This document shows, in pieces, positions 3,132 to 22,794 of a DNA stretch of 64,000 nt. The notes under the pieces were generated by a model that saw only the letters and a list, made by a program, of their open reading frames with translations, had not been told where the DNA came from and made no database searches. The first letter of the stretch is position 1, and each line of letters opens with the position of its first letter. The position numbers and the translations under genes were made by a program. The DNA is from an uncultured Bacteroidales bacterium. GTDB lineage: Bacteria; Bacteroidota; Bacteroidia; Bacteroidales; VadinHA17. The stretch lies in the NCBI GenBank assembly GCA_963760915.1, contig CAVXEU010000005.1, positions 256,966 to 320,965 of the forward strand, written 5' to 3'.

Positions 3132-5444
3132 TTACTCATACCTTAATGCCCGGACCGGATTTTTTGTTGCTGCACGCCAGCTTTGCCAGCTTACTGTCAG
3201 CAGGATGACTGACAATGCAATTATACCTGATACTGCAAAAATCCACCACCCAAAATCAGTTTTATAGGCAAAATTCTGCAGCCACTTATGCATGAAATAC
3301 CAGGCCACCGGACTGGCCAGTACACAGGCAAGGGCAACCCATTTCAGATAATCTTTGTTCAGCAATTGCAGTATGTTGATGATTCGGGCACCGTTAATTT
3401 TGCGGATGCCAATCTCTTTGGTACGATATCGGCTGGTCTGATAAGAGACAGCAAATAAGCCGATCATAGACAGGAACAGACTGATTAATGAGCATGATCC
3501 GATAAGCATAATGTAGTTTTTATTCTCCTTGTGGAGCCATTCATAACGGTCACCGACGGATTCAATATTTAGAGGGTAATCAGGGATCAGCTTTTGCCAG
3601 ACCAGAGTGATTGTCTGCCTTGCACGGGTAACTTGATTATCCGCTGGTTTAACCATCAGATGGCTGCCCTTATTGTCAAATGCTATGAAAGCTGGTTCTA
3701 TTGTCGATTTTAAGCTTGAATAATGAAAATCTTTTACAACTCCCGCCACAATCCTGTCGTCCATTCCCGGTAAGCTTTTTCCGATCAATGACTGGTTAGG
3801 GAATAAGCGTACCATTGACTCGTTTATCAACAATTTATTCTTGTCAGATGTGAGATTTTCAGAAAATCCGGGCCCATCAATCAGCTCTATACCCATCGTT
3901 GTCAAATAGTTTTCATCACCGGTAAAACCGGCAGGAGAATATTCCTTTTCAACGCCATCTTCCCTGTATTTCAATAAAAGTAAAAAATGCTCCAGTACGG
4001 GAGATGCACTAACCACAGACACCTTGTCAATTGAGATATCTTTCATCAATTCTTCCTTGAAAACTGTTGCTTTATTTGCGTACTGCCCTGGTAATTTAAC
4101 CTCAATCACCTGTTTGTTCAGCCCTATCGGACGATCGCTGATAAAATTCATTTGACGTATAATAACCATAGAACAAATTATAAGTCCTATAGAACTTGCA
4201 ATCTGCAAAATATTGAAAGCCGGCAACTGAACACGTTTAACCTTCTGACTCTGTGCTGACTTTAAAAAACCTGTATTTATATTTGAATGAATTCTATAAA
4301 AAGCAAACAGTAAGGTTACAATAAATAAGAACAGAACGATACCGGTAAGGATCATTAACTGTCCGCTCTGCAGAATAAAATTGTTTGTGATAGTGCTGCC
4401 TGTCAGTTTATTGAAAAAAGGTACCAATTCCGCCATTAATACCAGACTGAGGATAAATGACACACCAATTACAATCAGATTCTCCACCATAAAATCCAGA
4501 ACAAGACTAAATTCTGAACCACCATTTATCCTGCGTATATTATTCTCATTGGTTTTCCTGATCAGTTTATTGGTAAGCAATCCGAGATAATTGAATGAGG
4601 CCACACCTAAAATCATAAGTCCTATGATCAAAGCAATCAACAGATCATTTTTATTGCGACTTACCTCAAAACTTGCTCCTCTGGCTATGTTGAAATAAGT
4701 TTTCATAAAAGGTTCCAGGTAATATGAACCGGGGGTGCCGGTGTTTATTATAGGTATTGTCCCCTTCTTTTCCTTAAAGAGTTTTTCAACTTCCTGTGCA
4801 TTAGCCTGTTTTTTTAGTCTTACATAGCAACGGCTATCGGTTTCCCTGATAAGACGTACCATGTCAAAACGGATCTGGGTATTATCTGCAGGCTTTTCAA
4901 AGATTCCGGTAACCACCATATTCTCCCCTTTCTCACCATTGAAGAAGGTAATTACCTTTCCCACAGGATTTTCTGAACCAAAATATTTTTTAGCCAGTGT
5001 TGTTGATATCACCAGATTGTTGGCTGCTTCCAGGGCTGATCCCGGGTTGTTTGTCAACAGTTTATAAGAAAAAAAATCAAAGAAATTACTGCTGGCGGCA
5101 ATACATGCCGGCTTATCAAAATATTCTTCCTTATTGACAACAATCCGTTGGGAGCTGGCACCATTAATACGGCAAAAATCTTCCACCTGGGCAAAATTTT
5201 CCTTCATATATTCGGCAGATCCAAATCGGCAATGGTACATTTTTCCGCCGGGTATCCATGGATCATCACATTTCAGTGCATAGATCTGGTCATTCCTGCT
5301 CTGAAAATGGTCAGTTTTCAATTCCCTGCTTATGAAGATGATAATCAGGTTAAAAGCAGCTATGCCAATAGCAAGACTGATTATTATTACTGAAGTATTC
5401 AATCTGTCTCTTATAAGGCTTCTGAAAATCTGGGTTAGTTTCAT
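3132..5444 (-). CDS. Double-FtsX ABC-type permease, MacB/LolE superfamily (array paralog P1)
   Basis: 770 aa. Order: N-terminal TM, large extracytoplasmic domain, FtsX block, second extracytoplasmic domain, second FtsX block (RTKEIGIRKINGA followed by 3 TM). Tail SWQSWRAATKNPVRALRYE. Confidence 0.9.
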   Translation of the reverse strand: MKLTQIFRSLIRDRLNTSVIIISLAIGIAAFNLIIIFISRELKTDHFQSRNDQIYALKCDDPWIPGGKMYHCRFGSAEYMKENFAQVEDFCRINGASSQRIVVNKEEYFDKPACIAASSNFFDFFSYKLLTNNPGSALEAANNLVISTTLAKKYFGSENPVGKVITFFNGEKGENMVVTGIFEKPADNTQIRFDMVRLIRETDSRCYVRLKKQANAQEVEKLFKEKKGTIPIINTGTPGSYYLEPFMKTYFNIARGASFEVSRNKNDLLIALIIGLMILGVASFNYLGLLTNKLIRKTNENNIRRINGGSEFSLVLDFMVENLIVIGVSFILSLVLMAELVPFFNKLTGSTITNNFILQSGQLMILTGIVLFLFIVTLLFAFYRIHSNINTGFLKSAQSQKVKRVQLPAFNILQIASSIGLIICSMVIIRQMNFISDRPIGLNKQVIEVKLPGQYANKATVFKEELMKDISIDKVSVVSASPVLEHFLLLLKYREDGVEKEYSPAGFTGDENYLTTMGIELIDGPGFSENLTSDKNKLLINESMVRLFPNQSLIGKSLPGMDDRIVAGVVKDFHYSSLKSTIEPAFIAFDNKGSHLMVKPADNQVTRARQTITLVWQKLIPDYPLNIESVGDRYEWLHKENKNYIMLIGSCSLISLFLSMIGLFAVSYQTSRYRTKEIGIRKINGARIINILQLLNKDYLKWVALACVLASPVAWYFMHKWLQNFAYKTDFGWWIFAVSGIIALSVILLTVSWQSWRAATKNPVRALRYE

Positions 5445-8070: not shown

Positions 8071-10461
8071 CTATTCATATCGCAAGGATTCGACCGGATT
8101 TCTTGTTGCTGCCCTCCGGCTCTGATAAAATACAGTCATTAACGTTATTATGAGCACGATAAAGCCTGCAAATGCAAATACCCATAATCGCATTTCGATC
8201 CGGTACACAAAGTTCTGAAGCCATTTATGAACAGCATACCAGGCAACAGGACAGGCGATAATAAATGCAATTGCGACCCACTTAATAAATCCTGAATTCA
8301 ACATTAACAATACATCTGTTATTCCTGCTCCGTTAACTTTCCGTATGCCTATCTCCTTTGTTCGTCTTGCAATAAATACTGAGGTGACAGAGAATAGTCC
8401 GGAACAGATGATTAAAATTGTGAGAAGGGAAAAAAATCCGGTTATCTTAGCCTGCGAGAGCTCTTTGCTGTAAGCAGTATTATAAAGGTCGCTGATAAAT
8501 TCATAATTAAAAGGGTAATCAGGTAATTCCTCTTCCCAAACCTTTTTCAGATACGTTATAGCTTCATCTTTTCGGGCCAAATTGACTTTTACCAGAAAGC
8601 ATAGGTAGAATATTGGCTTTTGGAACAGAACATAAGGTTTTATCTCATGTTTCAGAGTATTGAAGTTAAAGTCACGTACAACACCCACAACATTTCCTCC
8701 GTAAAAAATATCGGGGGAGTCAAATTTTATTTTGAAAGGCTGGCCAATTGCTTCATCGGGACTCCATCCAAGCATCCTGACAGCTGTTTCATTCAATATG
8801 TAATCTTCTCTTTTTTTGTCTGGATTATAAATTGGAAAATTGTTGCCAGCAACCAGAGGAATATTGAAAAAATCAAGAAAATTATCCTCAACAGATAATA
8901 CATAAAGTTTTTTTTCCACAGTGTTATCCTTAATTCCCGGTGATTCGATACTGAAGGCATCGACTGTTTCACCGGAAGGTTCCTCTATTGAGGCTGTAAC
9001 ACTCTGTATAAGAGGGTTATGTAATGCTTTTATACGAAATGCGTTGTATTTAAACCTGACTTCCCAGTTTTGCTTTTTAAAAGCGAGAATATCACTGCTC
9101 ATATTCCCCATACTGTGGGATAGCATGAAACTATTCTGCCTGGCAATCGATATTGCTGCTACAAGAAGAATTATGGACATGCAAAATTGCCCGGTCATTA
9201 ATATGCCATAAGATGAAAGTCCAGGAATATTTTTATGGTGACTTTCCTTAAGTCCCGGCAATGATTTACGTATTGTTAATACATGGGAAATAACAGGCAG
9301 GCTGCCGGCTAATACCGGTAAAACTACTAATATTAATAAAACCAGCCAACCGGCAATTAAGTCAGAAATTCCGACTGGCAGAAGGCTGAAGCTGAAATAT
9401 GCCTTAGCCGGACCATCAGACAGATCGAGTAATATTACAGCAAATATGAGTGCCAGTGCAACACAAATAACTGATTCTGTCAATGACTGCACAATTATGA
9501 GCCTGGTTGTTGATCCTGTTATCCGCTGTATCTGTATCTGTTTCCTTAGTGTAAACAGTCTGGCTTTGTTGAGATTATAATAGTTTACCCACGAAACCAG
9601 AAGCATAACCAGTGCAACAATTATGAAAAGCCAGATAGCTGTAATATTACCGTTTGGTTCTGATTCCCTGTCTTTGTCCGAGTAGAGATGAATGTCTGTG
9701 ATCTTTTGAAGATAGGGTATGAAAGTGGTCTGATCCTTTTCCTGAACGACTTTCCTGATAAAGGAGGGGAATTGCGATAAAATTTTCTCAGGAGCAGTGT
9801 TTTGTTTTAACAGAAGATAAACATATGCCCATGAGGGTGATTCTTCGGGTCGTGCAAAAGAGGTCAGGATATCGAAGTGAATATGGGAATTTACAGGAGA
9901 ATCGTTCATAACTCCTTTAATTGTAAAAAGCACCATCCTGGTATCGTATTCGCCAGATAGCCAAATGTTTTGCCCAATCGGATCAGAGTTCCCGAAACAC
10001 TTGTGTGCAAGAGAAGACGAAATTACAGCCGAGTATGGTTCACTTAATACTTTCGCGGTATTACCTGAAAGCAGCCCGATATTAAAAACTTTAAAAAAAT
10101 TTGTATCGGTAGCAAATATCCTGTCCGAATAAAATTTATTCTCTCCTGCCTTAATTGCAGTATGGCGGTAGGGTTCAAGCCTGACCAGTTCTTCTATTTG
10201 CGGGAAATCAGCGGGTATCTGCCTTATCCATTTCTCCCAGCATCGGGCAAAATGAAGCCTGTTCCCGGAATTAATGGTCTCAAATGTCAGTCTGTATATA
10301 CGGTCGGAATCGGGCAGGTGCTTATCGTAGCTGAATTCGTTTTTAACCCATACTATAACAGCAAATGAACATGCAAAGCCAATCGTGAGACCTGTAATAT
10401 TCAATATGGTAAAGATCCTTAGCTTGAAAAGGTTCCGGAGTATGAGTTTTAAGTGGATCAT
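8071..10461 (-). CDS. Double-FtsX ABC-type permease (array paralog P3)
   Basis: 796 aa with the same architecture (RTKEIGIRKVNGAG). Tail FYQSRRAATRNPVESLRYE. Confidence 0.9.
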   Translation of the reverse strand: MIHLKLILRNLFKLRIFTILNITGLTIGFACSFAVIVWVKNEFSYDKHLPDSDRIYRLTFETINSGNRLHFARCWEKWIRQIPADFPQIEELVRLEPYRHTAIKAGENKFYSDRIFATDTNFFKVFNIGLLSGNTAKVLSEPYSAVISSSLAHKCFGNSDPIGQNIWLSGEYDTRMVLFTIKGVMNDSPVNSHIHFDILTSFARPEESPSWAYVYLLLKQNTAPEKILSQFPSFIRKVVQEKDQTTFIPYLQKITDIHLYSDKDRESEPNGNITAIWLFIIVALVMLLVSWVNYYNLNKARLFTLRKQIQIQRITGSTTRLIIVQSLTESVICVALALIFAVILLDLSDGPAKAYFSFSLLPVGISDLIAGWLVLLILVVLPVLAGSLPVISHVLTIRKSLPGLKESHHKNIPGLSSYGILMTGQFCMSIILLVAAISIARQNSFMLSHSMGNMSSDILAFKKQNWEVRFKYNAFRIKALHNPLIQSVTASIEEPSGETVDAFSIESPGIKDNTVEKKLYVLSVEDNFLDFFNIPLVAGNNFPIYNPDKKREDYILNETAVRMLGWSPDEAIGQPFKIKFDSPDIFYGGNVVGVVRDFNFNTLKHEIKPYVLFQKPIFYLCFLVKVNLARKDEAITYLKKVWEEELPDYPFNYEFISDLYNTAYSKELSQAKITGFFSLLTILIICSGLFSVTSVFIARRTKEIGIRKVNGAGITDVLLMLNSGFIKWVAIAFIIACPVAWYAVHKWLQNFVYRIEMRLWVFAFAGFIVLIITLMTVFYQSRRAATRNPVESLRYE

Positions 10462-10500
10462 GTTATTTATTCATTGCCGGGGATTTAACAAAAAGATATC

Positions 10501-12960
10501 TTACTCATATCTAAGTGCTTCCGCAGGGTTCCTTGTTGCAGCCCGCCAGCTCTGCCGGCTGACTGTAAGCAGTGCCAGTCCCAAAGCAAGCAATCCGGCC
10601 AAAACAAAAATCCACCAGTTCAGATCTGTTCTGTAGGCAAAGTTTTGCAGCCACTTATTCATGAGGTACCATGCAATTGGTGCAGCAATAATAAAAGCAA
10701 ATGTTACCCATTTTATAAATTCTTTATTGAGCATAATAATGACCTCTGTCACATTTGCGCCATTTATTTTTCGCATGCCGATTTCATTACGTTTCTGACT
10801 CAGATAAAATATGATCAACCCGTATAAACCAAGACATGCTATTGTAATGGAAAGTACGGTCAGCAATGTATAAAACTTCCCAAACCTTGCTTCGGACTTG
10901 TACTGTCTGAAGAAAAATTCATCGGCAAAAAAGTAATTCATAGGATCGGAGGTATAATGACTTGCCCAGGTACTTTTTAAGATTTTCAAAGCTTTATTAA
11001 TATCCGGGGTATTAAGTCTGACAGAGTAATAACCAAATTCGAATGGATGACCGTTGTTATATATCATAGGATAAATGGGTTTCTGCAGTCCTTCGTTGTG
11101 AAAATCAGACAGAACACCGATTACTTCAATTGGTACAGTATCCCTGTTAGACCGGTAAATAAAATTACCTATCGCTTCTTCGGCACTTTTAAATCCAAGT
11201 TCCTGCACGCTTCTTTCATTTATAATAACCCTGCGCCTGTTAAAAGATGGTGTTGGAGAAAAATTTCTACCGGCAATAAGCTTTAAACCGAAAGTCTCAA
11301 TAAGTCCATCGTCGGCATTATTCTCAAAAAATGTAGTATTCGGACGAATTCCTGCTTCAGGCCGTACATATTCGACATTACCATACCTGGGTGCCTGTCC
11401 GGGAGTAAAAGTATTTGCCGTAACTGATTTAAACTCGGGGTATTGAAGCAAATCATCCCGGAAAGCCAGATACTTTGTGCGTCTTGTTGTATCGCTATTT
11501 AATGAAGCCGGGGCGTTTAAAGTAATTACCTGACTAAAGTCAATACCCATATCGGCATTCTTCATGTATAAAATTTGCTTGTAAACCACCAGTGTGATGC
11601 TGATAAAGATTATTGATAGTGCCATCTGGGCTATCACCATTCCTTTTTGGAAGCTTCGTTTGTGTCTTACTGTTTTTTTACCACTAAATGGATTTAGCCC
11701 TGCCAGGGTTAAAGTATTGTAAATGCTTGAGAAAAATATCCCTGCCAGCGAAATGCCGGTTAATGACCATATAATATATTTACCCGGGAATACGGCCTGC
11801 GACAATGGAATTTCGAAATATCCGGCAAATGCGTTCAGAAGGGAACGGTACAAAATGAAAGCCAGGAGCATGGCAATAATATTTAATAAAAGAGTCTCCA
11901 GAAAAGATTGTATCCAAATATGTAAACCTGAAGCTCCTATAAGTTTTCTCATACCTATTTCATCAGCTCTTTTAGCCGCCAGTGCCGTTGACAGGTTGAC
12001 GTAGTTGATCCAGGCAATAAAGATGGTCAGCATCGCAATGACAAAAAGGAAAAACAGTGACTTCTGGTTTGTTTGTGACCCCAGTTCACCTTCCAGTCCG
12101 CGTAAATAATGAAGATCGGATAAAGGCTGGAGAAAAATTGTGGCAGTACGCTGGTTTACGGTTCGGGGAGTATTAGTATTTACCAGACTTGTCAGTGTTT
12201 CTTCCATGCTTTTTATTGAAACGCCGGGTTGTAGTTTTATATAATTCCAGTAGCCGTTATAATTCCAGTCTGGGTTTCTGCTGATCCAGTTGTACTGTTC
12301 CCACGTTTTCAGGGAAATAAAATAATCAGCCGTCAGGTGAGTGTTGGAGGGAAGGTCGTTATAGACACCTGTAATCTCAACCGGCATTCCTTCGTTTACT
12401 TTCATAATTTTACCGACCGGATCCTCATTTCCAAAAACTGCCGGTACTTTAGACCGGGCAATTATACCGGTTAGCGGCCTGGTAAAATCTACACTACCTT
12501 TTATTAATGTTAATGAAAATACCTTTTCGAACCCTTCATCTACCCATAGGACCCTCTGTTGCGCAAGCTGTGCATCCTTGTACCTGATCAGACAGGATTC
12601 AAAGTATGCGTCACCGTTTGCCTCAATTCCCGGAACATCTTTTTTACTTGCAAAGTATAATCCTCTTGATGTTTTAGTGCCGTGATAAAATTTTTCACTT
12701 CCATTTTTAGTGTCCATATTAACACGGTAAATGGAGGATGAATCCTTGAAAAATGAATCAAATGAAATTTCATAAAAAAGGTAATGAATTATGAACAGGA
12801 ATGCTGTTAAGCCCATGGTAAGCCCACAAACATTTATAATTGAAATCCCCCTGTTTTTCAACAGAGTCCGCATAGCTGACAAAAAATGAATTTTTAACAT
12901 TTTTAAATTTCCGTTTTGTGATTCGATTATTGCTATACTGCTAAGGTAATAATTATTCAA
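10501..12960 (-). CDS. Double-FtsX ABC-type permease (array paralog P4)
   Basis: 819 aa in the ORF track. By alignment with its paralogs the likely true start is the ATG at 12900 (MLKIHFLSAMRTLLKNRG), giving 800 aa. Tail SRQSWRAATRNPAEALRYE. Confidence 0.9.
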   Translation of the reverse strand: MNNYYLSSIAIIESQNGNLKMLKIHFLSAMRTLLKNRGISIINVCGLTMGLTAFLFIIHYLFYEISFDSFFKDSSSIYRVNMDTKNGSEKFYHGTKTSRGLYFASKKDVPGIEANGDAYFESCLIRYKDAQLAQQRVLWVDEGFEKVFSLTLIKGSVDFTRPLTGIIARSKVPAVFGNEDPVGKIMKVNEGMPVEITGVYNDLPSNTHLTADYFISLKTWEQYNWISRNPDWNYNGYWNYIKLQPGVSIKSMEETLTSLVNTNTPRTVNQRTATIFLQPLSDLHYLRGLEGELGSQTNQKSLFFLFVIAMLTIFIAWINYVNLSTALAAKRADEIGMRKLIGASGLHIWIQSFLETLLLNIIAMLLAFILYRSLLNAFAGYFEIPLSQAVFPGKYIIWSLTGISLAGIFFSSIYNTLTLAGLNPFSGKKTVRHKRSFQKGMVIAQMALSIIFISITLVVYKQILYMKNADMGIDFSQVITLNAPASLNSDTTRRTKYLAFRDDLLQYPEFKSVTANTFTPGQAPRYGNVEYVRPEAGIRPNTTFFENNADDGLIETFGLKLIAGRNFSPTPSFNRRRVIINERSVQELGFKSAEEAIGNFIYRSNRDTVPIEVIGVLSDFHNEGLQKPIYPMIYNNGHPFEFGYYSVRLNTPDINKALKILKSTWASHYTSDPMNYFFADEFFFRQYKSEARFGKFYTLLTVLSITIACLGLYGLIIFYLSQKRNEIGMRKINGANVTEVIIMLNKEFIKWVTFAFIIAAPIAWYLMNKWLQNFAYRTDLNWWIFVLAGLLALGLALLTVSRQSWRAATRNPAEALRYE

Positions 12961-15462: not shown

Positions 15463-17916
15463 CTATTCATATCTAAGGGCCTTCACCGGGTTCCTCGTCG
15501 CTGCCCGCCAGCTTTGCCAGCTAACAGTCAGCATGGCAAATAAAAGCGCCATAATTCCGGATAGAACAAAAACCCACCAGCTAAGCTCTGTTTTAAAAGA
15601 AAAATTCTGAAGCCATTTATTCATTGCGTACCATGCAACCGGTGTAGCAAAGACAAACGCAATCGCTATCCATTTCACGAAATCTTTGTTAAGGAGAACA
15701 ATAACTTCAATAATTGTTGCGCCATTTACTTTTCGAAGTCCTATTTCCTTGGTTCTTCTTTCATTCATACTCAACGAGAGCCCCAGAATCCCCAGAATAC
15801 ATAGAAAGACAGTGATAAAAGCAAACAGCAAAAGGAGATTCAGTGCTTTATGGTCAGATATATAATACCCGGCAATCCTGTCACTTAGAAATATGTATGG
15901 AAATACCTCGCCGGGAAAGACATTTTTCCATATTTTATCTATTTTATCCAGATCGCCTGGTAAAATTTCAGCTCTGTGGCTGCCGACAGTCTTTGAATTT
16001 GAAAGTTTTATATTCAAAGTCCTGAAACCGGCCGGATTATTATAAAAAACACAGGGTCTGATCTCATTGCGAAGTGAACCGGAATTAAAGTCCTCAACAA
16101 CACCCTTGATATATAGCCTGCTCGCGCCCGGACCTTGTATGATCTTACCAACAGCTTCATCTTTATTGAGGCCTATTTCAAACAGAAATTCCCTGTTTAA
16201 AATAATTGCACCGGCTGTATCACCGGAAGAAAAATTGCGTCCTGCTGCAAGTCTGAATGAATATAAATTCAGATATGAACTGTCGGCCATTTTAATCTCT
16301 GCATCAATTCTTTTTTCAGCATTATTGTTAAAATAGCTGAAGGAAGTCCATTGCTGGGATTCGGCTGGCACAACAGAACTAAAGCTTATCTCCTTTACAC
16401 CGGGAAAAGATAAAAGTTCACCTGATAACGCTGCCAGTTTTGAACCTGAATTTTCAGGCAATCTGGCGTAGATAATATTATCCGTGTTGTACCCCAGATC
16501 CTTGTGATTAATGTAATATATCTGCTTGACTATAAACAGAGTAGCAATTATAACTGCCTGTGCCACAACAAACTGAAGTATAACGCTTGCTTTTCCGAAA
16601 CTATTTCTGTTACCTGAGATGCCGGAATCACCGCTTTTTAACATTCTGGATAGCGATTTCAGGTTTAAATTATACGAGGAGAATACTACAGCCAGGAAAC
16701 CTCCGGAGAACAGAAGTGCCAGGACAAACAGAAACGCGGAAAAATTAATTTCCGGAATATATCCCCTGGGTATGTCTATGAAAGAATATAAATTTCCGAT
16801 TACAGAAAATACCAGCTGAACGCTCAACAGAAGAGCGAAGAAGTTTAACAGAAGCGATTCAGTAAGAAACTGAAAGAAAATTGTACGGGGATTGCTTCCA
16901 AGAATAAGCCTCAGCGCAATCTGCTTCTTCTGTTTGATTGTCTCTGCCAGAAAGAAGTTGCTGTAATTAAAACATGCGATCAGAAATATAAAACTGCCTA
17001 TAATGGTCAGTGCTAATAACAGGCCTCCGCTTACAGTACGGTTGTTGAAATTTCCGAAACTGCTTTCCTTGTGTACTTTCGACAGAGGCTGCAGCTTGAA
17101 CAATCGTCGCTCAGCATAATTACCATCAGCATGGGGGGAATAGATATCTTTGAACTTTTTCTCAATAGATTTAATGTCGCTTTTGTTATTCAGAACAACA
17201 TAACACTGAAAGTTGTCGGACAGGTTACCCCAGTCAGTGACTGATCCCGGATTAAGCTTTTCAGTATATGTTGGCAACGACAGAATAACTTTAAAAGGCA
17301 GGTCGGTATTTTCCGGGAAATCCTGGATAATACCAGCAATTGAAAATGTAGTTCCAAACAACCTGATATCTCTGCCTATTGGATCCTGGTTCTGGAAAAG
17401 TCTCTTTGCTGTTTCGTTGGTAATTACAGCAGTAAATGGTTTATCCAAAACCTGTTTACCTTCGCCATCAAGCCATTTTATACCACTTTTACCAAAATCA
17501 AAAACATCAAAAAATGAAGGTTCTGTGAATACGATGCCATCATCTAGCGAGAACGACTTTTCATCCTTGCTATCGCCTGAGAGGACGTTTATTTTCTGTC
17601 CATACACATATAACATGGATACAACATTTTGTATCTCAGGGATATTTCTTTTAAACTCACCCGGTAAAGCAGAAAAAACCCCGGTCCTGTATTCCAGTCC
17701 GCCTGTAGTGTAATCAAGTCCGGAAGTAACCCGTACAATCCTGAAGATATCTTTGCTTTGTGAATGAGAACTATCAAAACTCAATTCATAATTAATTTTA
17801 GTATAGATAATCAGACAACTGGTCAATCCTATTACCAGACCTGTGAATACCAGTAGATTTGATTTGAGATTTCGTGAAATCCTCCGTATCGCAATTTTTA
17901 GATTTTGTCCGTTCAT
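15463..17916 (-). CDS. Double-FtsX ABC-type permease (array paralog P6)
   Basis: 817 aa with the same architecture (RTKEIGLRKVNGAT). Tail SWQSWRAATRNPVKALRYE. Confidence 0.9.
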   Translation of the reverse strand: MNGQNLKIAIRRISRNLKSNLLVFTGLVIGLTSCLIIYTKINYELSFDSSHSQSKDIFRIVRVTSGLDYTTGGLEYRTGVFSALPGEFKRNIPEIQNVVSMLYVYGQKINVLSGDSKDEKSFSLDDGIVFTEPSFFDVFDFGKSGIKWLDGEGKQVLDKPFTAVITNETAKRLFQNQDPIGRDIRLFGTTFSIAGIIQDFPENTDLPFKVILSLPTYTEKLNPGSVTDWGNLSDNFQCYVVLNNKSDIKSIEKKFKDIYSPHADGNYAERRLFKLQPLSKVHKESSFGNFNNRTVSGGLLLALTIIGSFIFLIACFNYSNFFLAETIKQKKQIALRLILGSNPRTIFFQFLTESLLLNFFALLLSVQLVFSVIGNLYSFIDIPRGYIPEINFSAFLFVLALLFSGGFLAVVFSSYNLNLKSLSRMLKSGDSGISGNRNSFGKASVILQFVVAQAVIIATLFIVKQIYYINHKDLGYNTDNIIYARLPENSGSKLAALSGELLSFPGVKEISFSSVVPAESQQWTSFSYFNNNAEKRIDAEIKMADSSYLNLYSFRLAAGRNFSSGDTAGAIILNREFLFEIGLNKDEAVGKIIQGPGASRLYIKGVVEDFNSGSLRNEIRPCVFYNNPAGFRTLNIKLSNSKTVGSHRAEILPGDLDKIDKIWKNVFPGEVFPYIFLSDRIAGYYISDHKALNLLLLFAFITVFLCILGILGLSLSMNERRTKEIGLRKVNGATIIEVIVLLNKDFVKWIAIAFVFATPVAWYAMNKWLQNFSFKTELSWWVFVLSGIMALLFAMLTVSWQSWRAATRNPVKALRYE

Positions 17917-17998
17917 AGTTCAAATGTAAATTTGATCCTAAAATTTATTGTTTGTTATAAATCTGGTTTTCATGTAAAACATTACACAAAATATTTGA

Positions 17999-18226
17999 TT
18001 ATTCATATCTTAATGCCTCCACCGGGTTTCTTGTTGCTGCCATCAGGCTCTGCCAGGAACCACCCCTAAATCCCCCAGGGGGGACTTTGGATTCTGCTCT
18101 TAACCTCATCTTTAATTTTTCCCAGAGTAGTTTTTCACAAGTTGTCATGTTATTTCTAAGGATTTTGGCTGCCGAAAAAGTCTCAGGCAAGGCACCGTAA
18201 TACATTGATTTTTCTAATTCTTTCAT
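17999..18226 (-). CDS. 75-aa chimeric small ORF (DUF559-like N-terminal fragment fused to FtsX permease C-terminal tail); may be a pseudogene
   Basis: MKELEKSMYYGALPETFSAAKILRNNMTTCEKLLWEKLK.. matches the DUF559 N-terminal helix motif (A.xLRxxxTxxExxLWxxL). The C-terminus SWQSLMAATRNPVEALRYE equals the permease tail. Confidence 0.4.
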   Translation of the reverse strand: MKELEKSMYYGALPETFSAAKILRNNMTTCEKLLWEKLKMRLRAESKVPPGGFRGGSWQSLMAATRNPVEALRYE

Positions 18227-18281
18227 ATCTTTAAATTAGTACTAACCTGGTTAAGCCCCCCTTGGGGGGTTTGGGGATAGA

Positions 18282-18509
18282 TTACTCATACCTTAATGCC
18301 TCCACCGGGTTTCTTGTTGCTGCCATCAGGCTCTGCCAGGAACCACCCCTAAATCCCCCAGGGGGGACTTTGGATTCTGCTCTTAACCTCATCTTTAATT
18401 TTTCCCAGAGTAGTTTTTCACAAGTTGTCATGTTATTTCTAAGGATTTTGGCTGCCGAAAAAGTCTCGGGCAAGGCACCGTAATACATTGATTTTTCTAA
18501 TTCTTTCAT
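18282..18509 (-). CDS. 75-aa chimeric small ORF, copy 2 (identical protein)
   Basis: Identical translation to copy 1. Its 3 nucleotide differences from copy 1 are all synonymous. Confidence 0.4.
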   Translation of the reverse strand: MKELEKSMYYGALPETFSAAKILRNNMTTCEKLLWEKLKMRLRAESKVPPGGFRGGSWQSLMAATRNPVEALRYE

Positions 18510-18564
18510 ATCTTTAAATTATTACTAACCTGGTTAAGCCCCCCTTGGGGGGTTTGGGGGTTGA

Positions 18565-18792
18565 TTACTCATACCTTAATGCCTCCACCGGGTTTCTTGT
18601 TGCTGCCATCAGGCTCTGCCAGGAACCACCCCTAAATCCCCCAGGGGGGACTTTGGATTCTGCTCTTAACCTCATCTTTAATTTTTCCCAGAGTAGTTTT
18701 TCACAAGTTGTCATGTTATTTCTAAGGATTTTGGCTGCCGAAAAAGTCTCAGGCAAGGCACCGTAATACATTGATTTTTCTAATTCTTTCAT
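18565..18792 (-). CDS. 75-aa chimeric small ORF, copy 3 (identical protein)
   Basis: Identical translation to copies 1 and 2. Confidence 0.4.
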   Translation of the reverse strand: MKELEKSMYYGALPETFSAAKILRNNMTTCEKLLWEKLKMRLRAESKVPPGGFRGGSWQSLMAATRNPVEALRYE

Positions 18793-18847
18793 ATCTTTAA
18801 ATTAGTACTAACCTGGTTAAGCCCCCCTTGGGGGGTTTGGGGGTTGA

Positions 18848-18878
18848 TTATTCTTCAACCGGATTCCTTGTTGCTGCC
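18848..18878 (-). pseudogene. Vestigial permease 3' end (reads ..AATRNPVEE*), with a 12-nt internal deletion
   Basis: ttattcttcaaccggattccttgttgctgcc aligns with the last codons of the permease genes. Upstream of it (minus sense) there is no permease reading frame. Confidence 0.6.
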
Positions 18879-19021
18879 TTTATAATTCCTGTCATAAACA
18901 TTATTTGAAGTTATATTATGAGCATGAATTTCTAGATTTTATCATCACTCGAGATGATCCCGTCCACCAAATTTATGATACGGTTACCATATTTTCTTTC
19001 ACCCCCCGAAACACACTGGGG

Positions 19022-20023
19022 CTAATCCTCAAACCGTACATTTACATTTCCACCGCTTGAATGCATATAAACAGGAATTCCTCCATTATTCAAAGTTCCT
19101 TTTACACGATTCTTTTCAACTCTTCCGGAGAAATTACGTAGTTCAATATTAACCTTATCTGAGCTCAGATCCAGATCCAGTCCAAGGTCGTTCCCATTTT
19201 TGATAGTTGCATTGATTCCTCCCCCGCTGGATTGCAGGTATAATTCCTTGCTTAAGTTAGCAATATTAATACGGACCGGACCACCGCTGGATGTAGCTTT
19301 TACAGACCCTGCCTCCCCGGAAACGCTCACTCCGCCGCCGCTGCTGCCGGCATTCACATCACCGTGAATATTATTAAGGTGTACACCACCTCCGGAACTA
19401 TGGGCATAAACGCTGCCATGTGCATCATCCAAAGTGATACCCCCTCCGCTGGAACTCAAGTGAACATCACCGTTTTGATTATTTGTTGTTACTCCGCCAC
19501 CGGATGAACTTGCCGTTGTGGTTCCAGTGATATCTTCCAGTTGTACACCACCTCCGCTGCTCGAAAAATTATGAGTGCCTTTCACACCGGAAATTTTTAA
19601 TCCTCCTCCACTTGAGGATACATTGCATGACATTTCACGTGGGACTATAATTGTAAGTGAGATACCAGTATTCTGCCATGGATTTATACGTAACCTCCGT
19701 TCAATATTTGCAGTAATTACGGAACCATCTTTCCCGATATCCAAATTATAAATTCCCAGAACATCATCTACCGCCGGATCTGACGGAGATAAAAGCTTTC
19801 CGTTTTTTCTTATATATAACTCTACCACTACTTTATTCTGATCATGAGTTCTTACCTGTACTCCTCCGCCGGATGACTTTGCATTCAATGTACCGGGCTG
19901 ATCCAGATTGTATGTCTTTACTATGGTAGGAGTCCTGTTTTCCTGGGTAAATCCTTTACATGAAAGCAGTGTTACCAGCATTGCAATCATCGTGTACGTT
20001 TTTACATTTGTCTGAGTTTTCAT
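19022..20023 (-). CDS. DUF4097-like beta-helical repeat lipoprotein (putative adhesin family)
   Basis: Signal peptide plus lipobox (VTLLSCKG). About ten repeats of SSGGG[VI]x at an 18-residue period (SSSGGGVQLEDITGTTTA, SSSGGGVTTNNQNGDVHL, and so on). Confidence 0.7.
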   Translation of the reverse strand: MKTQTNVKTYTMIAMLVTLLSCKGFTQENRTPTIVKTYNLDQPGTLNAKSSGGGVQVRTHDQNKVVVELYIRKNGKLLSPSDPAVDDVLGIYNLDIGKDGSVITANIERRLRINPWQNTGISLTIIVPREMSCNVSSSGGGLKISGVKGTHNFSSSGGGVQLEDITGTTTASSSGGGVTTNNQNGDVHLSSSGGGITLDDAHGSVYAHSSGGGVHLNNIHGDVNAGSSGGGVSVSGEAGSVKATSSGGPVRINIANLSKELYLQSSGGGINATIKNGNDLGLDLDLSSDKVNIELRNFSGRVEKNRVKGTLNNGGIPVYMHSSGGNVNVRFED

Positions 20024-20192
20024 AGTAGAAATTTATTAAAGTTATGCCACTATTATTAATGAATTTGTTTATCTAAAATCAACCTTGAGTCCCTGCAGTA
20101 TTGTCTTTACAGCAAGCAGGTTGTGGGTCAGTTGTTCATTATTCAATCATATCTGAATACTTCAATACTCATGCTGTCCCGTCATTTCGGTG

Positions 20193-20420
20193 CTATTCAT
20201 ACCTCAGAGCCTCAACAGGGTTCCTCGTCGCTGCCATCAGGCTCTGCCAGGAACCACCCCTAAATCCCCCAGGGGGGACTTTGGATTCTGCTCTTAACCT
20301 CATCTTCAATTTTTCCCAGAGTAGTTTTTCACAAGTTGTCATGTTATTTCTAAGGATTTTGGCTGCCGAAAAAGTCTCGGGCAAGGCCCCGTAATACATT
20401 GATTTTTCTAATTCTTTCAT
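20193..20420 (-). CDS. 75-aa chimeric small ORF, copy 4 (identical protein)
   Basis: The translation is identical to copies 1-3 despite about 12 nucleotide differences from copy 1, all synonymous. Confidence 0.4.
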   Translation of the reverse strand: MKELEKSMYYGALPETFSAAKILRNNMTTCEKLLWEKLKMRLRAESKVPPGGFRGGSWQSLMAATRNPVEALRYE

Positions 20421-20475
20421 ATCCTTAAATTAGTACTAACCTGGATCAGCCCCCCTTGGGGGGTTTGGGGGTTGA
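20193..20475 (-). repeat. Solo fourth copy of the 283-bp unit, directly abutting the stop codon of permease P7
   Basis: Exactly 283 bp lie between the ORF stop at 20193 and the P7 stop at 20476. The body is near-identical to copies 1-3, but the terminal 43 nt match the adjacent P7 3' end instead. Confidence 0.95.
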
Positions 20476-22794
20476 TTACTCATACCTCAGAGCCTCAACA
20501 GGGTTCCTCGTCGCTGCCCACCAGCTTTGCATACTCACTGTAATTATGACAAATGAAACTGTGGCGATCCCGGCAAGTGCGAATATCCACCACCTGAGTT
20601 CAGTTCTGTAGGCAAAAGTCTGCAGCCATTTGTGCATAGCGTACCATGCAACAGGGGCGGCAATTAAAAATGAGACTGCAATTCTCTTAATGAAATCTTT
20701 ATTTAATATTGTTAACACTTCCGAGATACTGGCGCCGTTTATTTTCCTAATTCCAATCTCTTTTGACCTTGCAATACAATGCTGGAAAGTAAGACCGGTT
20801 ATTCCCATAAGGGTTAGTATAAGAGCCAGTATTGAAAAAATTGCTACTGCCAGACCCTGACGTTCTTCTTTCTGATACAGAGAGTTAAAAAACTGATCAT
20901 AAAAAGTGTAGTCAAACATATAGTCAGGTAGAATGGCATCCCAGGCGTCTTTAAGCTGTGCAAGCTGCTGTTCGGTATTTCCGGGTTCAATCCTCAGATT
21001 CAGGGCATTCATAAACCTGTTTTTAAATATTAAAGCAGCTGGCTCTCTTTCGGAATGAACAGAAGAAACCGAGAAGTCATTAACCACACCTATTACCTGC
21101 AATCCTCCATGTTCCTTAAATGTTTTGCCTTCAATGTCTGTCCAACCATATTTTTTCACAGCGGCCTGGTTAAGAATGCAGACTTTGTCTTCCTCGCCCT
21201 CGTGAAAGTTGCGTCCGGCAATAAGCTTTAATCCGAAAGTATTAACAAAATCCTCATCGACCTCCAGACAATTCAGCCAGAACTGGTTATTACTCTCCCC
21301 ACTTCCTGACCTCGAATTTATAAGTCCCGGTACCCCCATGCTGAGAGAGGCTGATTTAATGAATGGAAACCTGCCAAGTTCCTGTTTTACAAGATCTCCC
21401 TTTTCAAAGTTGCCCGGAAGAATTACCCTTACCAGGTGTTCTTTATCAAATCCCAGATCCGTCTGTTTTGCAAAAGTGATCTGCTTATATATTGTCAGGA
21501 CACATACCATTAATATAATAGATACAGTTGCCTGGAAAATTGACAGAACACTGTTTATTCCCTTTCCCTTTGTTTTAACTATATCAGCATGGAGAAATTT
21601 ACGAATATCAAATTTTGCATCCATGTACATGGGGGCAGCGGAAGTAATGAGGATAACCATTAAGATAATTGACGCAACAGCGAGGTTTGCAGGATATGAA
21701 TAGAGATTATGTAATTTCAAATCCCGTTCAAATAATTCCGAAGCAAATGGTAATACCTGTAATACAATGAATAATGCGATAATAAATCCCAGCAGAGTGC
21801 TCACGGTATTTTCAGTAATATGAAAAAGGGAGAGCTGACGGATTCCTGCCCCATGTGTTTTTTTAATTCCTGTTTCACGTAATCTTGAAAACTGGAGTGA
21901 GATTGTGAAGTTCACATGATTGAATATAGAAAGAAGAAGGATCAAAAGAGCAATAGCCGTAAACAGGTATATCATTGATGTGTTTGCCTGACGGTTCATA
22001 TTGTTGACAATACCTTTCTCGAAATAAATTTTTTTCAGGGATTGAATGATCAGTGGCCCTTCCGACCTGGTGGAGAAGTCTTTTATTTCACTGATCTTAT
22101 TGTTAAATTGCGCCGGGTCGTTGCCTTCTCTTAATTTTACATAGATGTTTGCAGGATACCAGATAATGCCATTATCGCCTGCCTGCATTATACGGGTTTT
22201 CTCACCTTCAATGTTGACGAAAAGGTCGGAATAGAAACTTGTATTATCGGGAAAATCCTCAATGACACCTGTTATCCTCGCACTTATGAATCCCCCGATA
22301 TCAATATTTCTGCCCAACGGACTTTCATCTCCGAACATATTTATGGCCAGTTTCTTTGATATAACTGCAGAGCCTGCCTCCGAAAAGGGTTCAGATGTAA
22401 ATCCTTCAATAAGCCTGAGATTGAATGTCCTGAAGAACTGGTTATCAGTTGAAATTGCATCTTTCAATTTTACATATTTATCTTCACAGGCAATATTAAA
22501 ATCCCATCCTGTAAGGTATTGTACAGGTGTTACGGATTCAATCTCCGGAAAGTCATTCCTGAGTTGTTGGGCGACTTTATAATTTATATTGCAGTCATTA
22601 TTATCCGATGCAATTAACCTGTAGATCCTCTTATAACCGTCAAAGTTATGATCAATTGTAGTTTCATTGAAAATAAACAGGGATATAATCAACACTACAG
22701 CAAATCCTATAGCAAATCCGCATATATTCAGTAACGAATAGACCCGGTTGTTTTTCAAGCCTCTTATGATTAGTTTTAAATTATAAAACAACAT
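20476..22794 (-). CDS. Double-FtsX ABC-type permease (array paralog P7)
   Basis: 772 aa with the same architecture (RSKEIGIRKINGAS). Tail SMQSWWAATRNPVEALRYE. Confidence 0.9.
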   Translation of the reverse strand: MLFYNLKLIIRGLKNNRVYSLLNICGFAIGFAVVLIISLFIFNETTIDHNFDGYKRIYRLIASDNNDCNINYKVAQQLRNDFPEIESVTPVQYLTGWDFNIACEDKYVKLKDAISTDNQFFRTFNLRLIEGFTSEPFSEAGSAVISKKLAINMFGDESPLGRNIDIGGFISARITGVIEDFPDNTSFYSDLFVNIEGEKTRIMQAGDNGIIWYPANIYVKLREGNDPAQFNNKISEIKDFSTRSEGPLIIQSLKKIYFEKGIVNNMNRQANTSMIYLFTAIALLILLLSIFNHVNFTISLQFSRLRETGIKKTHGAGIRQLSLFHITENTVSTLLGFIIALFIVLQVLPFASELFERDLKLHNLYSYPANLAVASIILMVILITSAAPMYMDAKFDIRKFLHADIVKTKGKGINSVLSIFQATVSIILMVCVLTIYKQITFAKQTDLGFDKEHLVRVILPGNFEKGDLVKQELGRFPFIKSASLSMGVPGLINSRSGSGESNNQFWLNCLEVDEDFVNTFGLKLIAGRNFHEGEEDKVCILNQAAVKKYGWTDIEGKTFKEHGGLQVIGVVNDFSVSSVHSEREPAALIFKNRFMNALNLRIEPGNTEQQLAQLKDAWDAILPDYMFDYTFYDQFFNSLYQKEERQGLAVAIFSILALILTLMGITGLTFQHCIARSKEIGIRKINGASISEVLTILNKDFIKRIAVSFLIAAPVAWYAMHKWLQTFAYRTELRWWIFALAGIATVSFVIITVSMQSWWAATRNPVEALRYE

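Follow-up and report, generated by a model that had tools for sequence, protein, structure and literature searches.

Several described systems resemble in part the element analysed here, a small cassette carrying a DUF559 nuclease gene, or a remnant of one, behind MacB/FtsX-type permease genes of an uncultured Bacteroidales bacterium (GTDB lineage VadinHA17). We studied it in a stretch of 64,000 nucleotides (nt) of contig CAVXEU010000005.1 (positions 256,966 to 320,965; assembly GCA_963760915.1), here called the window. In the model of Orr-Weaver, Szostak and Rothstein, a cut or gapped plasmid is integrated by "ends-in" (Campbell-type) double-strand-gap repair. The product it predicts is just what is observed for the cassette: the insert is flanked by a direct duplication, the gap is target-type in both copies, the edges are element-type and the junctions vary, and pop-out by crossover between the repeats matches two loci discussed below (L006 and L010). 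This reaction belongs, however, to laboratory gene targeting and not to a natural element family, and the homology carried by the cassette is only ~57 nt long and imperfect. Free-standing homing endonuclease genes (seg and mob of T-even phages; the Vsr-like I-Bth0305I) likewise have a nuclease gene as their sole cargo and occupy a fixed position beside a conserved gene segment; flanking sequence is exchanged along with them and copies decay by internal deletion. They vary in presence among related genomes, as the cassette may also do. DUF559 also falls in one PD-(D/E)XK clade with Vsr and the group I intron homing endonuclease 3r3p (PMC3424549). Homing nevertheless proceeds without target duplication and addresses one allele, whereas the cassette has the last ~57 nt of its target on both sides, targets dozens of paralogs per genome, has inverted-repeat hairpin ends, and carries mid-tails that look target-type and not donor-type.

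Miniature inverted-repeat transposable elements (MITEs) and REP/REPIN-RAYT systems share with the cassette the short hairpin inverted-repeat ends, the many deleted non-autonomous copies and the single small flanked gene, and ~75-nt mini-elements of the form A-spacer-B are dispersed in the same genome group. The cassette gene, however, encodes a PD-(D/E)xK DUF559 protein and not an HUH Y1 (RAYT) or DDE transposase, there is no short fixed target duplication, and the permease-associated cassettes depend on a carried piece of the target gene. Islands and prophages that target tRNA or tmRNA genes also keep the target intact by bringing or recreating its 3' end, so that the gene end is repeated at their borders; unlike these integrase-driven elements with a fixed crossover point, the cassette has junctions that vary and encodes no integrase or recombinase in its 0.2-0.55 kb. 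It resembles in part a free-standing homing gene and in part a MITE with an autonomous partner, and lacks what defines each: ~57 nt of the target are duplicated and the mid-tails of sibling cassettes are site-specific, where homing would co-convert donor markers without a duplication, and terminal inverted repeats as in a transposon or MITE are present, but the duplicated tail does not have the short fixed length of a target-site duplication. It seems to be a selfish cassette built around a nuclease gene, which inserts into members of a paralogous gene family under the guidance of homology and duplicates its target in doing so.

In the window a solo unit of 283 nt, c4 (20193-20475), abuts the stop codon (20476-20478; TTA on the plus strand) of P7, an intact MacB/FtsX-type ABC permease gene of 772 amino acids (aa) on the minus strand (20476-22794; Pfam MacB_PCD E=3.8e-32, FtsX E=2.4e-13). 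Three further units, c1 (17999-18281), c2 (18282-18564) and c3 (18565-18847), all on the minus strand, form a tandem array in register with c4, detected as a repeat at 17995-18850 with period 283, three copies and 98% matches; they are 98-99% identical to one another and have the same internal deletion as c4. An earlier sequence-only reading had c4 end exactly at the P7 stop codon with the 283-bp period preserved, a body about 98% identical to copies 1-3, and a terminal 43 nt that differ from copy 1 at 10 positions and match the P7 tail at 41 of 43. We reproduced each of these values: the body has 6 mismatches in 240 nt to c3 (234/240, 97.5%; unit positions 115, 187, 196, 232, 253 and 255), and the tail mismatches to c3 lie at unit positions 1, 4, 13, 15, 16, 22, 25, 31, 34 and 37. 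The switch it placed at gctgcc/atcagg inside the permease-derived part is also there, with gctgcc at 20230-20235 within a permease-derived part of 57 nt (20193-20249) that encodes WQSLMAATRNPVEALRYE and a stop codon. It was equally correct that the tails of the copies have no exact match among the intact permeases of the window, where P1 comes closest to copies 2 and 3 (37/43).

The right tail of c4 is composite. Its first 14 nt (20236-20249, minus strand; TGGCAGAGCCTGAT) are element-type, identical to copies 1-3 and matching P7 at 7/14, and its last 43 nt (20193-20235, minus strand) are site-type, with 41/43 identities to the P7 tail, 33/43 to copies 1-3 and 37/43 to the tail of a 794-aa permease at a related locus, L134. 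The left tail consists of the last 57 nt of P7 (20476-20532, minus strand; MQSWWAATRNPVEALRYE and a stop codon). The two differences between the tails are positions 1 and 4, in the stop codon and the last sense codon: the left tail ends in GAGTAA, the type seen in copies 2 and 3, and the right tail in GAATAG, like the 794-aa permease gene of L134. The match between P7 and c4 is beyond chance: the best pair among the tails of the eight permeases of the window reaches 35/43, and of 2,422 left/right pairs that combine tails of different loci, taken as background (mean 33.3/43, standard deviation 2.6), only 0.33% reach 41/43 or better.

Read on the gene strand, the full element runs from the permease end (...WQSWRAATRNPVEALRYE and a stop codon) through hairpin A (TTTACCCCCAAACCCCCCAAGGGGGGCTT), a spacer of ~25 nt, the DUF559 open reading frame (ORF) and hairpin B (AAGTCCCCCCTGGGGGATTTAGGGGTGG), which contains the last codons of the 132-aa DUF559 (PF04480) gene, to a linker of 4-14 nt, another copy of the ~57 nt that end a permease gene, and the flank. 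The two hairpins are imperfect inverted repeats of about 21-28 nt; the arms in the window (20450-20470 and 20257-20277) are 21 nt long and 81% complementary, and in other loci A and the reverse complement of B co-vary, as with CCCCTGAAGGGG at both ends in L159. In c4, hairpin A, the left inverted-repeat end (ACCCCCAAACCCCCCAAGGGGGGCTG; 20447-20472, minus strand), starts 3 nt past the P7 stop codon; the motif also comes after the permease stop codon at about 50 other sites. Next come an N-terminal DUF559 fragment, codons 1-41 of 132 (20298-20420, minus strand; tblastn against the full-length protein P0014), a DUF559 3' remnant with hairpin B (codons ~117-132, ending ...SRIQSPPWGI and a stop codon; 20256-20310, minus strand), and a linker of 6 nt, GGTTCC, that leads from hairpin B to the tail copy (20250-20255, minus strand).

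Aligned with the full-length cassettes of L015 and L003, the window unit shows a clean deletion from codon ~41 to codon ~117 between short direct repeats, and its parent resembles L015 (~95% identity in the shared parts). The sequence-only reading described a chimera of permease tail and DUF559 fragment. Both parts are present, but by these alignments the 283-nt unit is also an internally deleted, non-autonomous copy of a hairpin-bounded cassette (hairpin A, DUF559 gene, hairpin B). The DUF559 fragment itself is real, since the first ~40 residues of the 75-aa ORF in the unit are 78-94% identical to PF04480 N-termini. That ORF consists of DUF559 codons 1-41, the DUF559 3' end read out of frame, and the permease tail. 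Its relatives are of two kinds, 132-aa PF04480 proteins ending in ...SRIQSPPWGI and short metagenomic ORFs in which, as in the window ORF, "...PPGGFRGG" runs into FWQSWRAATRNPVEALRYE; the DNA of SPPWGI and its stop codon reads PPGGFRGG in another frame. A Pfam search with the 75-aa ORF returned nothing at E<=0.01, and we do not count it as a real gene, since three reading frames of separate origins are joined in it.

The arrangement recurs. In contigs from JGI, ENA, Logan and NCBI (metagenomes and Bacteroidales metagenome-assembled genomes, MAGs), collected as contigs that encode homologs and by scanning genomes for hairpin A and metagenomes for the B-linker-tail junction, we found about 50 unique sites at which the tail of a long permease ORF is followed by A, DUF559 or its remnant, B and a tail copy. 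Units at these sites are full-length (L003, L006, L015, L042, L095, L142, L145, L158, L186 and others) or deleted, with independent, differing internal deletions in the window, L001, L002 and L155, and they are solo or arrayed, with tandem arrays in the window, L001, L006, L042 and L095. By their record titles the hosts are uncultured Bacteroidales and other Bacteroidota, and the element is carried by near-complete MAGs such as CAWELF010000001.1 (4.38 Mb) and by the 466-kb contig JGI20214J51088_10000001; viral contigs scanned with the B-plus-tail junction pattern gave 0 matches. The hairpin-A probe is non-specific, with more than 118 genome matches, most of which adjoin neither a permease nor DUF559; the contig of the window (394,740 nt) is not among the matches listed.

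These wider searches also brought up relatives of other kinds. A second class of DUF559 genes (L016, L026, L081, L092, L096, L102), 59-67% identical to the permease-associated class, has the same A and B hairpins at unrelated intergenic sites and lacks the permease tail; no flanking direct repeats of at least 14 nt were found around DUF559 cassettes away from permeases. Mini-elements of ~75 nt consist of hairpin A, a spacer of ~22 nt and hairpin B without a DUF559 gene (L069, around 800-1080 on the minus strand, L087, L058, L109, L033, L070 and others). A perfect inverted repeat, GAGGCTGTCTCAAAAG...CTTTTGAGACAGCCTC, encloses them. They abound in some Bacteroidales MAGs and appear to form a MITE family of their own with the same ends; about 20 listed hairpin-A loci come from CALMJY01, not each confirmed as a mini-element. 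Hairpin A also occurs in short-period tandem arrays, of about 140 nt x7 at L038 (6246-7192), about 70 nt x7 at L105 (~4123-4678, minus strand) and 52 nt x11 at L122 (~3151-3722, minus strand), the last with a DUF559 fragment nearby (4055-4204). At L186 a full-length cassette (4128-4700) has a different left hairpin (CTCCCCCAGAGGGGGAG), and the identity of its 59-nt repeat runs ~30 nt beyond the stop codon into the next hairpin, which suggests the start of a further unit.

Near-identical cassettes sit behind divergent genes. Among 29 cassette pairs with DUF559 proteins at least 80% identical, 21 follow permeases that are at most 50% identical over the last 250 residues, and cassettes whose DUF559 proteins are 80-98% identical lie behind paralogs only 31-51% identical. 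Such similarity behind dissimilar genes shows that the cassette moves between permease paralogs. On one 466-kb contig, L142 and L195 have DUF559 proteins that are 98% identical behind permease paralogs with 39% identity. The DNA of the two loci aligns closely from TATGAGTGA plus A through B plus GCTGGCAGAGCTGG; the tails between those limits are site-specific, with left and right alike at each site. The pair reproduces, in an independent genome, the pattern of c4 against c1-3, an element-type body with a site-type tail.

The nuclease gene is maintained by purifying selection (median dN/dS, the ratio of nonsynonymous to synonymous substitution rates, 0.11), and the motifs QHPI, DF.CH, E.DG, YD..R and RF.N.E are invariant or nearly so in 19 cassette-borne proteins. 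Cassette proteins match PF04480 at E=1e-31 to 6e-34. The full-length P0003 (1.5e-31) and P0014 (6.3e-34) clear the curated cut-off, but taken by itself the fragment in the window misses the Pfam threshold (E=0.035), and no intact DUF559 copy lies in the window. A sequence search of solved structures returned a sole match, the uncharacterised 3HRL (E=4.8e-16). The full-length cassettes contain no transposase (DDE, HUH, serine, tyrosine) or integrase, the 132-aa DUF559 gene being their sole ORF, and no RAYT (Y1 HUH) gene lies between the repeats, since the flanked gene is PF04480 and has no HUH family match. DUF559 proteins are reported to be enriched near predicted inversion-prone inverted repeats (PMC9881135), which fits the flanking of cassette DUF559 genes by inverted repeats; a full-text literature search on DUF559 found no account of mobility. 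As the only gene of the cassette, under purifying selection and from the clade that holds Vsr and a homing endonuclease, DUF559 is the candidate for the protein that makes the initiating break.

Tails at the same site are more alike than tails from different sites, with a mean of 37.6/43 against the background of 33.3/43, and 14 of 50 same-site pairs reach at least 41/43. The intact cassettes of L142, L145 and L186 are flanked by perfect repeats of 57-59 nt, the tails of L150, L158 and L161 differ in the last 1-4 nt only, and many sites show 9-14 differences between the tails in 57 positions. The cassette always lies at one fixed place with respect to the stop codon; the shared tract varies from about 17 nt to at least 57 nt. 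Counted from the end of the right tail, the switch between element-type and site-type sequence falls at 27-30 nt in L006_7875 (the second L006 site), ~33 in L179, 37-44 in the window, 45-52 in L195, and at least 55 in L050 and L142; the other L006 site has a shared block of ~17 nt. Occupied permease tails are also nearer to the consensus of element-borne tails than unoccupied tails from the same loci (48.0 against 44.7 of 57, p=0.002).

Crossover between tails occurs in nature. In the population represented by L006-L014 some contigs carry two diverged cassettes behind the permease and others one, and the tail of L010, which has one cassette, is a hybrid of the 5' part of tail T_a and the 3' part of tail T_b of L006, joined across a 17-nt block of identity. 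The two cassettes of L006 (4479-5399; also L007-L009 and L012) are full-length and in tandem, with proteins ~91% identical and synonymous divergence (dS) of ~0.2; unlike the 98-99% identical units of the window, they are two separate arrivals or an old array.

The surroundings of c4 have changed by more than the arrival of a cassette. The closest P7 orthologs are 78-83% identical in protein, and the gene is 82% identical to them in DNA. L134 and L136 have, in order, a P7 ortholog, a P1 ortholog, the 794-aa permease without a window counterpart, a 171-nt spacer, a gene for a DUF4097 ("toastrack") protein and an ABC ATPase gene; relative to L134 the window has two permease genes fewer between P7 and DUF4097, and L134 has a permease end and flank where the window has the cassette. 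Window 20250-19022 on the minus strand aligns with the last 58 nt of the 794-aa gene, the spacer and DUF4097 at 88% over 1,231 nt. This covers the native flank from the right tail to the DUF4097 gene (20024-20192, minus strand; orthologous to the spacer in L134 and L136) and the DUF4097 gene itself (19022-20023, minus strand; Pfam E=2.9e-06 and synteny), which lies between the solo unit and the array. The 43 nt of c4 match the 794-aa permease tail at the same level of identity as the flank, and the P7 tail scores no more than 26-30/43 against those of its three orthologs, but ortholog tails show little conservation in general. The earlier claim that c4 ends in a second copy of P7's own last codons therefore holds for the 41/43 match, but tail and flank are collinear with a different permease of L134. 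A nearest-tail search for P7/c4 across all loci gave several unrelated tails at 34-35/39 and was not decisive on which tail is native. Gene order differs in every relative examined, so that at least one further deletion or body/tail exchange must be assumed in the history of P7 besides the cassette insertion.

Reshuffling is visible elsewhere in these arrays. The order of permeases around DUF4097 (window 3132-25354) is different in each of L134, L137, L138 and L155; the two DUF4097 copies of L155 lie behind two different permeases, and in L134 the ABC ATPase gene follows DUF4097 where the window has an orphan tail and the array. Permease arrays appear to be reshuffled at their conserved 3' tails. 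Behind a P5 ortholog in L155 comes a 284-nt unit with another deletion and tails that are 56/57 identical, and after it a DUF4097 gene. The P1 ortholog of the same locus (9311-11623, minus strand; 770 aa) precedes a DUF4097 gene, ends in SWQSWWAATRNPVEALRYE and a stop codon, and shares an unusual "WW" codon pair and 35/39 of the middle tail with P7 (20476-20535); tail types may thus travel with the downstream flank and not with the gene body, though several unrelated tails score as high. Partial second tail copies without a cassette lie 35-45 nt past permease stop codons (for example ...GGAGGCATTGAGGTATGAGTAA) at L134 5863-5960, where hairpin-A-like sequence follows, L137 5083-5130 and L155 9221-9310, and are possible footprints of lost cassettes. 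A search for empty sites by BLAST of right flanks against all loci found no same-species empty P7 allele and one usable cross-species case, the cassette-free tail and flank of L183 against B, tail and flank of L192 (81% identity); several other matches were discarded as due to another repeated hairpin.

The explanation we favour, to which we give an even chance, is that the cassette integrates by homology-guided ends-in gap repair through the ~57-nt permease tail that it carries. It would travel with a single copy of the ~57 nt at the 3' end of a MacB/FtsX permease gene and enter by Campbell-type recombination between that copy and the conserved tail of a target gene. The element-borne tail would be broken or gapped and the gap filled from the target, giving gene body - (t1 t2 t3') - A - nuclease - B - (t1' t2 t3) - native flank, in which t2 is target sequence now present twice, t1' and t3' are short element-borne ends, and the reading frame of the gene is intact. 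For P7 and c4, t3' would be the final GAGTAA region, t1' would be TGGCAGAGCCTGAT and t2 the shared tract, 25-40 nt by its junction limits, which would make the breakpoint at gctgcc/atcagg the t1'/t2 junction. Left tails that are site-type save for the last few nt, right tails that are element-type in their first 8-30 nt and site-type after that, and junctions that vary from site to site are what an ends-in gap-repair product should show. Without a gap the reaction would reduce to a plain single crossover, as in L006/L010, and its reversal would remove a unit; at P7/c4, single reciprocal crossover of a circle with a c1-3-type tail was rejected, as it would leave the tails unlike at 8 positions. 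Once present, tail repeats would allow unequal crossover, by which arrays such as copies 1-3 would arise, units would be lost, and whole permease genes would be deleted or reshuffled. The scheme presupposes that DUF559 makes the break, that the break or gap lies in the element-borne tail, and that an excised intermediate, linear or circular, exists.

Several observations weigh against this explanation. RecA-type recombination on 57 nt at ~80% identity is expected to be inefficient. The polarity of every insertion event is inferred. The ratio of same-site to background mismatches falls from 0.76 at both ends of the tail (the 5' end and the last 4 nt) to ~0.5 in mid-tail, but this positional trend is weak (bootstrap P=0.09 and 0.04), and the greater similarity of tails around intact than around deleted cassettes is a marginal trend (p=0.06). 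Mismatches between left and right tails fall at third codon positions in 67% of cases and most right tails are still readable as intact permease C-termini, so that decay of a once-identical duplicate is insufficient and extra exchange of tails with functional paralogs is needed. The tail attached to the P7 body has the flank that another permease has in L134. Some DUF559 cassettes with the same A and B hairpins are not next to permeases and have no flanking direct repeats, and the hairpins may be the recognition target of the nuclease rather than the tail. If the donor of c4 was unlike c1-3, the tract shared by P7 and c4 could be donor sequence, as in homing with co-conversion.

Later gene conversion between the two tails is a serious rival, unlikely as we judge it to be. 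A cassette with a foreign tail would arrive, by single crossover or otherwise, and its tails, 283-540 nt apart, would afterwards be converted alike, with tract ends set by where homology runs out. Such local homogenisation would accommodate the demonstrable recombination of neighbouring tails (L006 against L010), the variable tract lengths, the unlike tails at many sites, and mismatches that are mostly synonymous, as if tails were repeatedly overwritten from functional copies. It sits less well with the several intact full-length cassettes that have perfect 57-59-nt repeats, and with P7/c4, where the tract spans 8 positions that differ in c1-3 and a 43-nt, ~80% identical repeat is a poor conversion substrate; conversion should also ignore cassette integrity, against the weak trend just given for intact cassettes. 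Classical intronless homing, for which our expectation is lower again, would have DUF559 cut an unoccupied tail and the break repaired from a donor cassette flanked by like tails; at P7 both tails would then be donor sequence by co-conversion, native only from the last ~4 nt and the flank. The low scores of the P7 tail against three orthologs (26-30/43, in a gene 82% identical in DNA) speak for this, as do the clade of DUF559 and the several sites where only the last 4 nt distinguish the left tail from the right. Ortholog tails are poorly conserved in general, however, which makes the low score weak evidence; the c4 tract matches the 794-aa permease tail at 37/43, equal to the 88% of the flank, as if native; and the middle tails of sibling cassettes differ (c4 from c1-3, L142 from L195), where homing would spread one donor tail. 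Homing or gene conversion with the conserved tail as homology arm was nonetheless the closest of three mechanisms that the sequence-only reading proposed: movement between paralogs, variable junctions and the consensus bias of occupied tails agree with it, but it is incomplete.

Another of those mechanisms, unequal crossing-over between permease 3' ends, finds support in L006/L010 and in the two permeases missing relative to L134, and is also incomplete on its own. A further reading has no transposition at P7, but only deletions and unequal crossovers in a permease array, with the c4 tail left over from a deleted gene and the P7 tail swapped. L134 and L136 do have two more permeases before DUF4097, and tail and flank of c4 are collinear with the end of the last one; gene order is scrambled among the window, L134, L137, L138 and L155; and partial second tails without a cassette exist in L134, L137 and L155. 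We consider this improbable: it leaves unexplained a 97.5% c1-3-like body behind P7, with element-type sequence on both sides of the site-type tract, and near-identical cassettes behind unrelated paralogs elsewhere. The remaining proposal, a very long target duplication, holds as a description, since at many independent sites the tails before and behind the cassette are near-identical. In the form of a true transposon it would mean staggered cuts ~40-57 nt apart followed by gap filling. Terminal inverted repeats, the perfect 57-59-nt direct repeats at some sites, and the constant position relative to the stop codon fit such a transposon, but the duplicated tract ranges from about 17 nt to at least 57 nt and has no fixed length, which speaks against a staggered cut. 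The same type of cassette also occurs elsewhere without flanking direct repeats of at least 14 nt, and carries no transposase or integrase gene, DUF559 having no known transposase fold. We think a transposon highly improbable.

The other features of the window give the setting of these units. Its minus strand holds eight MacB/FtsX-type permease genes head-to-tail, identified with Pfam; besides P7 these are P1 (3132-5444), P2 (5573-7948), P3 (8071-10461), P4 (10501-12960), P5 (13034-15433), P6 (15463-17916) and P8 (22982-25354). The three-copy array is preceded by an orphan partial tail, "rem" (18848-18878, minus strand; AATRNPVEE and a stop codon, with a 12-nt internal deletion), which has no permease body upstream; its homology begins near the same GGCAGC position as the c4 breakpoint, and the 143 nt between it and the DUF4097 stop codon (within 18848-19021) have no permease homology. 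Rfam covariance models gave no match in 17800-20600 on either strand at E<=1. In a promoter and terminator scan the B and A hairpins are terminator-like on the plus strand only, antisense to the genes, which is uninformative. A weak tandem repeat at 42650-42688 (20 nt x2, score 50) is unrelated to the cassette.

For annotation, the 75-aa ORF and similar metagenome ORFs of 30-65 aa (P0002, P0017-P0019) are chimeric artefacts and not genes. More broadly, and as a tentative proposal that we regard as possible but doubtful, nucleases of the large DUF559 family, which has no assigned function, may be the engine of an unrecognised kind of bacterial mobile element, hairpin-ended, cut by its own nuclease and inserted by host recombination through a ~57-nt address label taken from a conserved gene with many paralogs, duplicating the end of a gene and driving the formation and reshuffling of permease arrays, with the ~75-nt mini-elements as non-autonomous relatives. 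If this is true, it would give the widespread DUF559 (PF04480) family its first concrete biological role, and would add, between homing and transposition, a way of moving in which the host gene is left intact. The divergence would also be accounted for in the gene order of Bacteroidales MacB/FtsX permease arrays among relatives, whose conserved 3' tails, multiplied by cassettes, would act as portable recombination sites.

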